Shown here in pieces: positions 54,242 to 63,700 of a DNA stretch of 64,000 nucleotides. The translations under genes were made by a program, and so were the position numbers. Below the pieces are notes generated by a model. It saw nothing but the letters and a program-made list of their open reading frames with translations. It was not told the DNA's origin and did no database searches. The first letter of the stretch is position 1; each line of letters begins with the position of its first letter. The stretch is from the sequence record NC_025447.1; one strand, 5' to 3'. This stretch comes from Escherichia phage 121Q.

Positions 54242-54287
54242 TGTATCCTCCAAATGTAAATCGTTATTATATTTAGGACAAAAAAAT

Positions 54288-54307
54288 GCCAGTACTTTAG
54301 TACTGGC
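54288..54307 (-). terminator. hairpin GCCAGTAC-n4-GTACTGGC at the paralog junction
   Basis: Perfect 8-bp inverted repeat followed by T-run on the minus strand. Confidence 0.45.
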
Positions 54308-54321
54308 ATAGTTTTATAGTA

Positions 54322-55431
54322 TTATTTCGGCATTGTAATTGCAGACCATGAGTTCGTGGTGATAGGACCTGGTACATACAAAAAAGAACCACAAGCATAA
54401 ATTTGATTATTACCATCAAATACTATACTAAAATGTGCACATGTGTATAATGATGATTTTTCTGGGTTGTAATTATCTAAAGTTAGTGTATTGGTGAATC
54501 TACTCAAACCACCTCCCGAACCATTTCTACCAAATTCACCAGTACTGTATATCTTTCCTTCGGTTGTTGCGTACATATTAACATATGAAGTCGAACTTGA
54601 TTTTGATATTTTATGTATCTTACTATCAATAGGAGTGGAGTTAAATGTAAATGGATATACTTGTGTGTTCGTTGTAATACCGTTACCAAGTTGACCAATA
54701 TATTGCCAACCTGCGTTGTATATATTGCTGGCTGAATAAGCAAGAGTACCAGTACTGTTACCACCAAATAGTTTAACACTTGTTAACCTGCTTACTAGTG
54801 TAGTATACTGTCCGGGACTTACGCCAAGTGAACCATACCCACTGCTCCCGCAACCGAGAAGTTCATTATTTGATGTTAATATTAATGTGTTATTCTGTGT
54901 ACCCAATATATCAAGGACTGTATTAGCTCCGGTATTAACAACTGAAACAAAAGTACTCTGAGCAGTGGAATACCCACCACCGAGTGAATAGTTACCATTC
55001 ATGCCTCTACCATAAACAATCGAACCACTAGCATCAACGTAGTGCATTGTATCTGCACCAATTGATATCATTTTAATATTAGATATATGTGGAAATGAAG
55101 AAGTAACATTTAAACCACCCAACGGAATCATAGTATTTCCTGTGCCTAATTGTGTGGTAACTCCATGCATTATGAATTCTTCACCCTTGAGATAAAGAAT
55201 ATTGTACGCACCAGCCCATGCATCAGTAACACCTTCTGAAATTAATATCCAAGTATTTCTTGTTGCTGTATTTTCAACGTTTAACTGCAAATACGTATTA
55301 ACCCCACAACCATAAAGTGAACCATCGCCATAGAGGACGTACAAATTATCAAGACCGCACAGTACTTTCTTTATCTTTGGTGCTTCAGGTGCAATATTTC
55401 CGTACTTAACCATTCTTGTGAAAGGTAACAT
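54322..55431 (-). CDS. RCC1-like beta-propeller protein with MLPF N-terminal module
   Basis: Starts MLPFTRMVKYGNIAP; repeated G-x-LG-x-G segments about every 50 aa. Confidence 0.6.
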   Translation of the reverse strand: MLPFTRMVKYGNIAPEAPKIKKVLCGLDNLYVLYGDGSLYGCGVNTYLQLNVENTATRNTWILISEGVTDAWAGAYNILYLKGEEFIMHGVTTQLGTGNTMIPLGGLNVTSSFPHISNIKMISIGADTMHYVDASGSIVYGRGMNGNYSLGGGYSTAQSTFVSVVNTGANTVLDILGTQNNTLILTSNNELLGCGSSGYGSLGVSPGQYTTLVSRLTSVKLFGGNSTGTLAYSASNIYNAGWQYIGQLGNGITTNTQVYPFTFNSTPIDSKIHKISKSSSTSYVNMYATTEGKIYSTGEFGRNGSGGGLSRFTNTLTLDNYNPEKSSLYTCAHFSIVFDGNNQIYACGSFLYVPGPITTNSWSAITMPK

Positions 55432-55449
55432 AATTTTCTCCTTAAATTT

Positions 55450-56621
55450 GTGGCAATTGGTATTCAGTTAAAGTCCATGTACCAACAACTGTCCCTACTG
55501 GAGACATACCAGTGTAGTATAATTTCCCATTCACATATGCAAATAATGCATTGTCATTCGCAGCAACCAACGATGTTGACGGATCATAAACTACAGAATT
55601 TGGAAATTGTGCTTGGACGAAAATTGAAGCATTATTAGATGAATTGTTACCAAGCTGTCCATAATTATTATACCCTGTTCCAAAAATACGACTTCCATTT
55701 CTATATAATAATCCCCTAGGATTTTGTGAATATGTTTGTATAAATTCAAAATCGGAAACATTAGTTAATTGTAAATAAGTACTTTGTGGCGTTAAAGATA
55801 TCTTATTAGTATTAGATAGAACACCATTTCCTAATTGTCCGTGAATTTTGTGACCCTACACCATATAGCGGATAAGTATTATCTACATTAAGAACTATAC
55901 CCAACATATTGTTATATGAAATTATATCAACGGGGTACTGGCCTGTAGGAAAACTATACTTTGTCCAACTCGACAAAGTATCAGTAGCAGAACCAGTTAA
56001 CAATGTACCAGTACTAGTTTTACCACATCTCCATGCTGAATTATCATTTTTAATTATCCAAGTTGGACTATTGAAAAATGAACTAACCTTTTTAACATTA
56101 ATATTAACCTGTGTAAATGATGTAAGTGTAGATGAACTACTACCCAACTCATAGGTTGAATTATCACCTATTGCGTAAAGAACACTATCATTTGTTAGTA
56201 AAAACATATTACGAACATTTGGATATATCTCCTTGATATTATCCACATTAAAACCTGAAAAATAAGACGTACAATCAACAAATGTAGTACTTTGAACTGC
56301 ACTAGATGTACCAGTCCAAAGGTTCCAACCTGCATAATAAAATTTATTATCATTGGTCTGAACTAAGCTATATGAAGCATTCCTTGTGCACCAAAAATTT
56401 TTCACATTTTGCATTAAGCGAACCCATTTGGTCTGTGTCGTTGTATTTCCAAGACCGAATATACCAGCATTGTTACCGCCAATACCCCACAAATCACCGT
56501 TCTTATACAGAATCATCAATGTGTTGTTGGTAAAAGCCGATGGTGCTTGCATTTTAATTACACTAGATTCATATATAGGTGCTATATTCCCGTACTTAAC
56601 CATTCTTGCAAAAGGTAACAT
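55450..56621 (-). pseudogene. RCC1-like paralog with disrupted C-terminal half
   Basis: ORF 55812-56621 starts MLPFARMVKYGNIAP; downstream 55450-55812 still encodes RCC1-like peptides (e.g. NYGQLGN) but in broken frames. Confidence 0.4.
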
Positions 56622-56629
56622 AAATCCCT

Positions 56630-62424: not shown

Positions 62425-62428
62425 ATTT

Positions 62429-62490
62429 CCCTCCTTTATTCATTATACTATATTTAATACAAATAAGAAAGCCAGTACAGTGTACTGGCA
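62429..62490 (-). promoter_or_regulatory. paralog junction cassette: terminator hairpin + promoter-like box + RBS
   Basis: GCCAGTACagtGTACTGGC + TTTCTTATTTG + TATTAAATATAGTATAATGAATAAAGGAGGGAAAT. Confidence 0.5.
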
Positions 62491-62495
62491 TTATA

Positions 62496-63635
62496 TTATT
62501 TCCACGGTAGAAGTGAATCAGGAACCCTTGTTGGTACAGTAGTTGAAGACATTCCAGTAAGATTGGGTACACCACATGTGTATAAATTATTATATTCGTC
62601 AACTAACATCGTATAAGAATAGCTCTTACAAAAACTACTAAGATTACTACCTTCTAATGCAGTAAGATCCATTTCAGCGAATGATGTTATATACATATCA
62701 GTTGTACCAATACCACATTGACCATTTGAATTAAGGCCACATGAAAATAACTTATTATTATTATTAATTATACAGGATGGTCCGGTAAGGTTTGTCCCAA
62801 GCTCACCCACCAACTCCACTTCTCCTTGGAATGATAAATTTGGAATTAATGTACTCATTGGGGCTACTGACCTATTTCCTGTACCTGCTTGTCCATAGTC
62901 GTTAATAGATGCAACTTTAACATTACCATCATTAAGAAATATATAAGAAGTTTCATTTGTATTGACTGCTTTAATTGCATTACTAATCGAAGTATCTTGT
63001 GTAAATGTGAGCAAGTTTTGTGTCGTCGTTCCTGATACAAACGTTCTACCTGCATACCAATATGAACCATCATTTAGTACTAATCCAGTACTATATATTG
63101 CACAACCAGCACTGATAACATTTTCTATTGTACTATAGGTGAATCGTGAAACGCTTGAAGTTGATCCATTCCCAAAAACACCACCAGTACCAGCACCACA
63201 GTAGAACCACTTTCCATTTTTTAAAAATACACGCATACACGAAGATATCACAACACTATCAATATCATCTGCACTGACACCGAAATCAGTAAAGTTCTGT
63301 GTTATATCAACCCAAACGCCGTTAGTGTTTGAAGATAGTATTGGAATAACAGTACGTCTACCAGTGTACCAAATAGTACCATCTTTCTTTATAGCAATTG
63401 TTCCTTGTACCCCACCCCAATATCGTGTAACATTTGAGTTGACAAGAGTCCATTCAGTTGAAGAGTCCAATGAACTATTACCACTTTGTCCATATGCTGA
63501 AGAACCAAACCAATATAGATTGCCATTTGTGTGTAAATAAAATTTGGCATCAGCAGAACATTGTAACCTGTTTTTAGGTAGAATCAGTTCAGGTGCGATA
63601 TTCCCGTACTTAACCATTCTTGCAAAAGGTAACAT
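62496..63635 (-). CDS. RCC1-like beta-propeller protein with MLPF N-terminal module
   Basis: ATG at 63635 (MLPFARMVKYGNIAP) after AAGGAGGGAAT; YGQSGNSS / GQAGTGN repeats. Confidence 0.6.
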   Translation of the reverse strand: MLPFARMVKYGNIAPELILPKNRLQCSADAKFYLHTNGNLYWFGSSAYGQSGNSSLDSSTEWTLVNSNVTRYWGGVQGTIAIKKDGTIWYTGRRTVIPILSSNTNGVWVDITQNFTDFGVSADDIDSVVISSCMRVFLKNGKWFYCGAGTGGVFGNGSTSSVSRFTYSTIENVISAGCAIYSTGLVLNDGSYWYAGRTFVSGTTTQNLLTFTQDTSISNAIKAVNTNETSYIFLNDGNVKVASINDYGQAGTGNRSVAPMSTLIPNLSFQGEVELVGELGTNLTGPSCIINNNNKLFSCGLNSNGQCGIGTTDMYITSFAEMDLTALEGSNLSSFCKSYSYTMLVDEYNNLYTCGVPNLTGMSSTTVPTRVPDSLLPWK

Positions 63636-63639
63636 ATTC

Positions 63640-63700
63640 CCTCCTTTATTTGTTATACTATATTTAATACAAATAAGAAAGCCAGTACAGTGTACTGGCA
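63640..63700 (-). promoter_or_regulatory. paralog junction cassette: terminator hairpin + promoter-like box + RBS
   Basis: Near-identical to cassette at 62429-62490. Confidence 0.5.

Follow-up and report, generated by a model that had tools for sequence, protein, structure and literature searches.

How are the genes of a tandem array expressed, and how does such an array change its content, when its members resemble each other most closely at their borders? This question is raised by a locus of Escherichia phage 121Q, which we analysed within a stretch of 64,000 nucleotides of the phage genome (sequence record NC_025447.1; hereafter the window). Ten genes, G0 to G9, most of them encoding RCC1-like beta-propellers, follow each other on the minus strand (53089..64000); G0 extends past the end of the window. 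At their junctions a cassette of about 110 nt recurs, which comprises a hairpin, a promoter-like box, a ribosome-binding site and the first codons of the next gene. It is likely that the cassette serves as a late unit module for each gene and, at the same time, as a homology patch for the exchange of genes.

Concerning the relatives of the phage, members of the Asteriusvirus group (PBECO4/121Q/phAPEC6-like jumbo coliphages and Salmonella phages) were the sole megablast matches to positions 54000-64000. The best record, phage SP27, covers 55% of this query at 97.9% identity, whereas a neighbouring gene of the window (19316-20470) is found at full length and with at least 99.3% identity in 19 genomes of the group. 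By this comparison, the array region is a variation hot spot, the genome being conserved elsewhere.

The cassette is a genuine repeat, far above chance expectation. An alignment of all nine junctions in the window (J1 to J9) gave full cassettes at seven boundaries, J1 to J7. Over 111 nt these copies share 83-91% identity (mean 87%), and the DNA conservation reaches about 12-15 codons into each gene, whereas the gene bodies share 25-29% amino-acid identity. The nine junctions, with the nine array ATG codons of the window, are built as follows:

63591..63699, minus strand: J1, before G1; hairpin 63699-63681, U-tract 63680-63671, TAAATA 63666-63661, TATAAC 63657-63652, GGAG 63644-63641, ATG 63635, tag codons 1-15 63635-63591 (MLPFARMVKYGNIAP)
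62380..62489, minus strand: J2, before G2; hairpin 62489-62471, TAAATA 62456-62451, TATAAT 62447-62442, GGAG 62434-62431, ATG 62424, tag MLPFARMMNYGNIAP
61118..61226, minus strand: J3, before the glycine-rich G3; hairpin 61226-61208, TAAATA 61193-61188, TATAAT 61184-61179, GGAG 61171-61168, ATG 61162, tag MLPFGRMVKYGNKIE
60309..60417, minus strand: J4, before G4; decayed hairpin 60417-60399 (GCCAGTACTTGATACTAGC), TAAATA 60384-60379, TATAAT 60375-60370, GGAG 60363-60360, ATG 60353
59090..59198, minus strand: J5, before G5; hairpin 59198-59180, TAAATA 59165-59160, TATAAT 59156-59151, GGAG 59144-59141, ATG 59134
57866..57976, minus strand: J6, before G6; hairpin 57976-57957, TAAATA 57942-57937, TATAAT 57933-57928, GGAG 57920-57917, ATG 57910
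56577..56687, minus strand: J7, before G7; hairpin 56687-56669, TAAATA 56653-56648, TATAAC 56644-56639, GGAG 56631-56628, ATG 56621
55387..55441, minus strand: J8, before G8; GGAG 55441-55438, ATG 55431, tag codons MLPFTRMVKYGNIAP; hairpin and box absent
54197..54309, minus strand: J9, before the decayed G9; hairpin 54309-54286 (-15.2 kcal/mol), TAAATA 54275-54270 (following TATAAT absent), GGAG 54251-54248, ATG 54241

The hairpin pattern GCCAGTAC-N3/4-GTACTGGC occurs in five exact copies (0.00 expected) and in three further copies with one or two arm mismatches; the hairpins at 59198-59180 and 56687-56669 have lost their top pair and nothing else. The 18-nt box GTATTAAATATAGTATAA is exact at seven junctions, J1 and J7 continuing with TATAAC and not TATAAT. 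An N-terminal 23-mer is matched seven times with at most three mismatches (0 expected), and GGAG lies 5-6 nt upstream of the ATG at all nine junctions. The first-pass annotation had described a cassette at eight boundaries and a single pattern for each of them. Eight hairpins are indeed present, but on a strict count seven cassettes are full and the common pattern is slightly overstated: the J4 hairpin is degenerate, J9 as the eighth boundary has kept the hairpin but reads CCTAAATATAATAACG in the box and MLPFGRIITSS at the N-terminus, and J8 as the ninth retains the ribosome site and N-terminal codons alone. The GenBank record of phage UE-S1 contains 'repeat_region' features of 104-105 bp at two junctions. 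The papers on phAPEC6, CBB, fEgEco12, Sharanji, UE-S1 and JP4 and an overview of jumbo phages mention multiple RCC1 genes and do not describe the cassette, and an Rfam search of 52000-64000 with E-values up to 1 gave no match.

Predicted folding energies lie between -10 and -15.2 kcal/mol for seven of the eight hairpins in the window (z-scores between -4.0 and -5.4 relative to shuffled sequences); the J4 hairpin reaches -3.6 kcal/mol (z = 0). The hairpins begin 3-15 nt past the stop codon, and behind each lies a T-rich run, present on the coding strand only. We compared 51 distinct copies from the window, phAPEC6, UE-S1, SP27, PBECO4, EJP2, Munch and fENko-Kae01. In a nine-pair stem, 91% of the cells are paired and four of the nine pairs show two-sided changes, such as C-G to U-A in Munch, or, at orthologous junctions, C-G in Munch where fENko-Kae01 has U-A. 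At the three variable top pairs, all one-sided changes that still pair are G·U or U·G wobbles. None of 500 shuffles reached the observed covariation score, and slid registers dropped to 16-45% pairing. A dimeric DNA-binding palindrome was considered and rejected: the arms stand 3 to 8 nt apart, depending on the copy, and the wobbles pair on the sense strand only, which argues for an RNA stem and not for a protein-bound DNA palindrome. With its stem-loop and U-tract on the transcribed strand, the element would be an intrinsic terminator or attenuator. One hairpin of the same family stands outside the array:

52409..52434, minus strand: array-family hairpin (AATCCAGTAC...GTACTGGATT), T-run on the minus strand only

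It lies between two plus-strand genes, is kept in phAPEC6, SP27, UE-S1 and PBECO4, and may be the terminal terminator for transcription in array direction, about 650 nt beyond G9. A stop at this site would be antisense to a gene for 220 amino acids (52446-53108).

Behind the hairpin follows the box, of which three lineages of phages carry three versions:

PBECO4 type: ...TTTG TATTAAATATAGTATAAT GAATAAAGGAGGG
EJP2 type: ...TTTTTTG TAAATACATTATAAT TATTTTAATTTTGGAGAA
Munch type: ...TTTTTT AATTAAATATAGTATAAT TACATGAATTATGGGGGATAT

When 51 unique sequences were anchored on TAAATA, the sole strongly conserved stretch was T-run, TAAATA, N3, TAT(A/G)AT. The TAAATA core is invariant in 67 cassettes, and the base before it is T, G or C, never A. 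The first gene of each array, which has neither an upstream paralog nor a complete hairpin, keeps GGGTAAATATGATATAAT; ancestry by duplication alone therefore does not explain the box. In no copy was a TTGAC-like -35 box found 16-19 nt from TATAAT. The early promoters of the window are of another kind: 18 perfect TTGAC-N17-19-TATAAT sites (0.44 expected), all on the plus, early-gene strand. Due to this difference the cassette promoter would belong to a different class. A generic sigma-70 scan of 52000-64000 was uninformative (65 sites, 60 expected).

The resemblance to T4 late promoters suggested in the first-pass annotation is supported for the core of the box. TAAATA is the core of ATAAATA, the late motif reported for the Rak2-like phages CBB and GAP32 (PMC5259590), and (A)TAAATA is found in phAPEC6 before the genes for the major capsid protein, scaffold, prohead protease and baseplate wedge and before other genes; CTAAATA lies upstream of phAPEC6 gp228c. 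CBB_244 is a gp55-like sigma factor (PMC5259590), and phAPEC6 gp237c, whose gene lies outside the window, is annotated as 'sigma factor for late transcription'. Of 16 TAAATA sites on the minus strand of the window, eight belong to cassettes. Another lies ahead of the sole remaining large gene on this strand, with TATAAT again spaced by 3 nt:

20493..20507, minus strand: box ATAAATA-CGT-TATAAT, before the gene at 19316-20470

This gene (minus strand; PHROG 10468; GGAGGG upstream) is 99% identical to phAPEC6 gp077. The gp077 orthologue is a lone virion gene, in opposite orientation within the early region. Two plus-strand genes of the 'early' block (127 amino acids at 37546; 503 amino acids at 38175) carry CTATAAATAT... 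upstream (37490-37545 and 38120-38174), and these may be late genes as well.

That each paralog has its own terminator, promoter and strong ribosome site, as proposed earlier, agrees with the stability of seven of the eight hairpins, the covariation in 51 copies and the presence of the box in three lineages and before first genes. That every paralog is its own transcription unit goes too far even as a reading of the sequence, given that G8 lacks hairpin and box and that the J4 hairpin is decayed; because J8 has neither element, G8 is probably co-transcribed with G7. As to the gene bodies, the array members in the window are:

62496-63635, minus strand: G1, intact RCC1-like propeller
61234-62424, minus strand: G2, intact RCC1-like propeller
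60425-61162, minus strand: G3, glycine-rich, non-propeller
59205-60353, minus strand: G4, intact RCC1-like propeller
57983-59134, minus strand: G5, intact RCC1-like propeller
start codon at 57910, minus strand: G6, frameshifted
55450-56621, minus strand: G7, truncated
54322-55431, minus strand: G8, intact RCC1-like propeller
53089-54241, minus strand: G9, frameshifted

The assignment of G1, G2, G4, G5 and G8 is based on Pfam RCC1 and RCC1_2 matches above the cut-offs and on PHROG 4219. The AlphaFold model of G5 (predicted local distance difference test, pLDDT, 85; predicted template modelling score 0.86) was matched by Foldseek to UVR8, RPGR and RCC1 with template modelling scores of about 0.75, so that Pfam, AlphaFold and Foldseek agree on a seven-bladed propeller of RCC1 repeats. 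G3 resembles the other array proteins in residues 1-12 only (G3-G5 comparison), and a sequence search of the PDB with G3 gave no match. In phAPEC6 the array proteins are minor components of the virion. Mass spectrometry of purified phAPEC6 virions detected six array proteins (gp003, 005, 006, 007, 009 and 010) and gp077 (PMC7247149, Table 1), the single array homologue of GAP32 is also a virion protein (PMC5259590), and the annotation of the fENko-Kae01 homologue of the glycine-rich protein states that LC-MS/MS detected it.

Three members are damaged. G6 carries a 4-bp tandem duplication (ATGG, 57729-57732) relative to phAPEC6 and SP27, which shifts the frame after codon 60 and reflects either a fresh pseudogene or a sequencing error. 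G7 runs for 269 amino acids to a stop codon that is alike in the window, SP27 and phAPEC6; the truncated 30-kDa product was detected in phAPEC6 virions, and its out-of-frame remainder leads straight into the cassette-less J8. G9 shares the site of its frameshift with PBECO4, has an internal deletion in SP27 and phAPEC6, and is decayed in all relatives. Decay seems to be under way in this last array gene, whose promoter box has lost TATAAT.

The coding part of the cassette is a protein-level tag common to unrelated proteins, which the first-pass annotation had missed. In 85 paralogs from eight genomes the first 12 residues read M-[LI]-P-F-x-[RK]-[MI]-h-x-Y-[GA]-N; P3, F4 and N12 are invariant, and Y10 is found in 84 of the 85. 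Many of the junctions in Munch and fENko-Kae01 lack the DNA cassette and are coupled through translation, and still keep the peptide, while its codons vary freely (CCA, CCG or CCT for proline, four codons for glycine, AGA, AGG or CGT for arginine). Since the peptide is kept despite this synonymous freedom, it is itself under selection. PBECO4-like arrays hardly vary at synonymous sites (TTA 50/50, CCT 50/50, AGA 49/50), which points to an added homogenisation at the DNA level.

The tag is attached to RCC1 propellers, to the glycine-rich G3 (Gly_rich_2), to a Kelch propeller in EJP2 and to a Munch protein of PHROG 6011, 'virion structural protein'. The array member at 1838-2734 of the EJP2 locus is a Kelch-repeat propeller and not RCC1-like, with the same tag and cassette. 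Among homologues of the G3 body, two of 120 clusters carry the tag. Beyond Rak2-like phages, the glycine-rich family mostly begins with M-[LI]-E-[LM]-L (e.g. Salmonella phage PVPSE1 protein 19), which hints that short N-terminal tags are a wider habit of this domain. A word-indexed search for homologues of G5 returned 12 matches, too few for a wide tracing of the tag. In the G5 model, strands begin at residue 22 and residues 1-20 are without secondary structure (pLDDT 47-65), which places the tag outside the predicted propeller fold. We rejected a 'velcro' strand that closes the propeller, on account of this model and of the tagged non-propeller bodies. Also rejected was a cleavable capsid targeting sequence (CTS) of the T4 type, since no L/I-x-E site is conserved: position 15 in PBECO4-like paralogs is Pro in 42 and Glu in five of 50, with no conserved Glu in or after the tag. 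Being a short, unstructured and conserved N-terminus common to unrelated virion proteins, the tag is best read as a putative docking or addressing peptide for virion proteins.

The cassette also marks the sites at which arrays differ. Breakpoints were mapped in detail for one pair of genomes, the window and SP27, and qualitatively for five more. The two arrays of the pair consist of blocks of 97-99.8% identity that end in cassettes, and all three gene-sized differences have their crossovers inside cassettes. SP27 gene 5 is absent from the window: block 1 extends to +43 of G2, the next block begins at -76 of this gene, and J2 alone matches both SP27 cassettes around gene 5, with a crossover overlap of 62500-62381. 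G4 is absent from SP27, where one cassette matches J4 at the left and J5 at the right crossover. For the presence or absence of SP27 gene 12, the crossover lies within the 20-nt hairpin common to the standard and the J9-type cassette. Clustering of gene bodies in six genomes revealed differences in both content and order: two bodies stand as B-C in four genomes and as C-B in UE-S1, and body L is found at array position 1, 2, 3 or 4. The array of UE-S1 is of the PBECO4 type, but two of its gene units (5346-7855 of the UE-S1 locus) have cassettes of the EJP2 type. The first of these units fuses PBECO4-type N-terminal codons to an EJP2-type promoter and body, apparently a conversion tract or an import between lineages.

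Cassettes at orthologous positions of the window and SP27 differ at 3.3% of positions, the bodies at 0.93% (3.6 times; Fisher p = 6e-6). The differences are variants known from other cassettes; J7 carries the TATAAC-AA patch of J1, as compared to its orthologues in SP27 and phAPEC6, and this patch is a candidate gene-conversion tract. As orthologous cassettes diverge more than the bodies, an exchange between copies is indicated: conserved as a family and exchanged among positions, the cassettes bear the signature of gene conversion and crossing-over. That the repeated DNA could be a substrate for such events had been proposed beforehand, and both the breakpoints against SP27 and the excess divergence of orthologous cassettes lend it direct support.

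Taken as a mechanism, the stem-loop of 8-10 bp with its U-rich tract would bring transcription of the preceding gene to an end, as a terminator or attenuator that also stabilises the 3' end. Sixteen nt further on, TAAATA-N3-TATAAT without a -35 box would be read by the late machinery of the phage (a gp55-like sigma factor), and the resulting mRNA would have about 15-20 nt of leader and a GGAGG ribosome site 5-6 nt ahead of the ATG. The first 12 codons would then provide a short unstructured tag, most likely docking or addressing the attached domain (RCC1 propeller, Kelch propeller, glycine-rich or other) into the virion. With some 110 nt almost the same from boundary to boundary, homologous recombination between copies could delete, duplicate, transpose and import whole gene-plus-cassette units and homogenise the cassettes; the outcome would be a hypervariable set of tagged minor virion proteins.

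Several observations weigh against this reading and have to be considered together with the alternatives that they favour. The box reads TTAAATA or GTAAATA against a consensus of ATAAATA; TATAAT is conserved equally with TAAATA, at a fixed 3-nt spacing across lineages, and is a possible sigma-70 -10 element; and the first array genes read TGATATAAT, which matches the extended -10 TGnTATAAT. Host sigma-70 RNA polymerase might thus read TATAAT as a -10-only or extended -10 promoter, with TAAATA as an A/T-rich enhancer and the upstream T-run serving like an UP element, and the array would be early, middle or constitutive. We consider this unlikely. A -35 box is missing from the cassettes, in contrast to the perfect early promoters that the phage itself possesses; TAG and not TGn stands before TATAAT in internal cassettes; the genes encode virion proteins (PMC7247149); and the invariant TAAATA equals the late-gene motif (PMC5259590). 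Moreover, TATAAC is found at J1 and J7 and at their orthologues in SP27, PBECO4 and UE-S1, before intact genes of 99.8% conservation, and this variant lacks the final T needed by a sigma-70 -10 element. A late, gp55-type promoter is therefore favoured. With regard to the hairpin, the AGTAC/GTACT core is essentially invariant in the 51 copies, even across distant lineages, a constancy that a simple terminator does not need, and the U-tract is interrupted (UUUCUUAUUU), so that termination may be partial. The same family occurs once outside the array, and the other terminators of the phage are unrelated stems with UUCG loops. Hence the hairpin could be mainly an element of RNA processing or stability, or a DNA cruciform that stimulates recombination or is bound by a phage protein. 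This appears rather improbable in view of the T-run behind every copy on the sense strand only, the wobble variants that pair only in sense RNA, an arm spacing of 3-8 nt unlike that of a dimeric DNA-binding site, and a location right behind stop codons, where terminators lie.

It is likewise conceivable that the first 12-15 codons are conserved as DNA only, as recombination homology or as a translation-initiation region, with a functionless peptide. The frozen synonymous sites of PBECO4-like arrays, crossovers that reach +19 and +43 of the coding sequence and the UE-S1 gene in which local-type N-terminal codons, apparently converted, follow an EJP2-type promoter would fit such a role. Nevertheless we consider it improbable: Munch and fENko-Kae01 keep the peptide with free synonymous variation, even at coupled junctions without a cassette, its residues P3, F4, N12 and Y10 are (nearly) invariant, and four unrelated bodies bear it. 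A passive, functionless leftover of recent tandem duplication, for which the common ancestry of junctions between tandem paralogs might speak, is effectively refuted by bodies of 25-29% amino-acid identity next to cassettes of 87%; in addition, each element is kept in three diverged lineages, the stem changes are compensatory and unrelated gene bodies carry the cassette. Further points to be held against a combined late module and homology patch are that the J4 hairpin is decayed and J8 has no cassette, yet both genes persist; that the array paralogs were detected in virions with one to four peptides each (PMC7247149); that a low pLDDT says little in favour of a docking peptide; and that recombination is deduced from comparative patterns, while termination, promoter class and timing, and binding of the tag are deduced from sequence.

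Rak2/Asteriusvirus jumbo phages are isolated for therapy, and they differ very little in their genomes outside a small number of hot spots, of which the array is one. A 110-nt module thereby offers a mechanistic handle on strain-to-strain differences in virion composition. The tag is a candidate minimal virion-addressing peptide, for use in phage display or cargo loading like the CTS of T4. Caution is advised with the annotation 'DNA condensation protein' for array genes. As a more speculative possibility, which we put forward tentatively, the cassette might be a device by which virion cargo is plugged in. An open reading frame of any kind, once recombined between two copies, would immediately obtain an insulating terminator, late control, a strong ribosome site and a 12-residue address tag for its loading onto or into the particle. 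The array would then be a rapidly exchangeable library of tagged host-interaction proteins (adhesins or ejected counter-defence proteins), whose units move between Rak2-like phages, possibly as excised circles.

The cassette was compared with four known systems. With intrinsic terminators the hairpin shares a G+C-containing stem of 7-10 bp, a loop of 3-8 nt, an immediate U-rich tract on the sense strand and the position 3-15 nt past the stop codon. It differs in that the stem is conserved as a family (AGTAC/GTACT), whereas theirs are idiosyncratic, and in that the interrupted U-tract doubles as the upstream region of the next promoter. With the gp55-dependent late promoter of T4 (TATAAATA) and the ATAAATA of Rak2-like phages, the box shares an A/T-only TAAATA element about 25 nt before the start codon, the lack of a -35 box, virion genes downstream and a phage group that encodes a gp55-like sigma factor. 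In contrast to these, T, G or C replaces A before TAAATA, and the cassette TATAAT at a fixed 3 nt is missing from typical late promoters of the group. According to Repoila et al. 1994, as cited in PMC3012670, the internal proteins of T-even phages share only their N-terminal CTS. Here too diverse virion proteins have in common only a conserved N-terminal leader of about 10-12 residues, which in T4 directs them into the particle. The sequences are unrelated, however (MKTYQEFIAE and MLPFxRMxxYGN), the T4 leader is cut by the prohead protease at L/I-x-E whereas the tag has no conserved Glu, and the cassette-tagged bodies, unlike the T-even internal proteins, are mostly beta-propellers, placed only to whole virions (PMC7247149).

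The closest analogue of the cassette as a whole is, by its architecture, the promoter-early stem-loop (PeSL) of T4-type phages, a repeated unit of stem-loop, promoter and Shine-Dalgarno sequence in hyperplastic regions that is linked to modular shuffling (PMC2839356, Arbiol et al. 2010; PMC4122927, Comeau et al. 2014). Both are small, repeated, intergenic units that combine a stem-loop of the terminator or attenuator kind with a promoter, a Shine-Dalgarno sequence and a start codon; both are clustered in hyperplastic regions and flank variable non-core genes; and in both, indels or replacements between close relatives end in cassettes, implying homologous recombination between copies. Accordingly, the cassette was found to have a predicted stable stem-loop by the promoter, Shine-Dalgarno sequence and start codon at the 3' end, and indel ends within its copies. 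The defining feature of PeSLs, a strong sigma-70 early promoter with -35 and -10, is replaced in the cassette by a late-type TAAATA without -35. Furthermore, the cassette stem-loop lies wholly upstream of the promoter and has a classical U-tract, the homology continues about 40 nt into coding sequence that encodes a conserved peptide, and the flanked genes are paralogous virion genes of a Rak2-like jumbo phage, whereas PeSLs flank early ORFans. Several of the early promoters are composite units such as TTGACTTCGGTCAGCC(C)TTTTTGCTATAAT, repeated on the plus strand, whose -35 box is overlapped by a hairpin with a UUCG loop and whose -10 has a T-run before it:

34698-34727, 45279-45308, 46561-46590, 48729-48758, 10187-10214, 10666-10694 and 11425-11453, plus strand: early promoter units

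The plus strand of the window thus seems to carry early PeSL-like cassettes of classical architecture as well. We read the array cassette as the counterpart, with a late promoter and an added coding tag, of the PeSL shuffling cassettes of T4; the PeSL principle, by which regulatory cassettes are recombination joints, would then extend past classical T4-like phages, to late promoters and into coding sequence.

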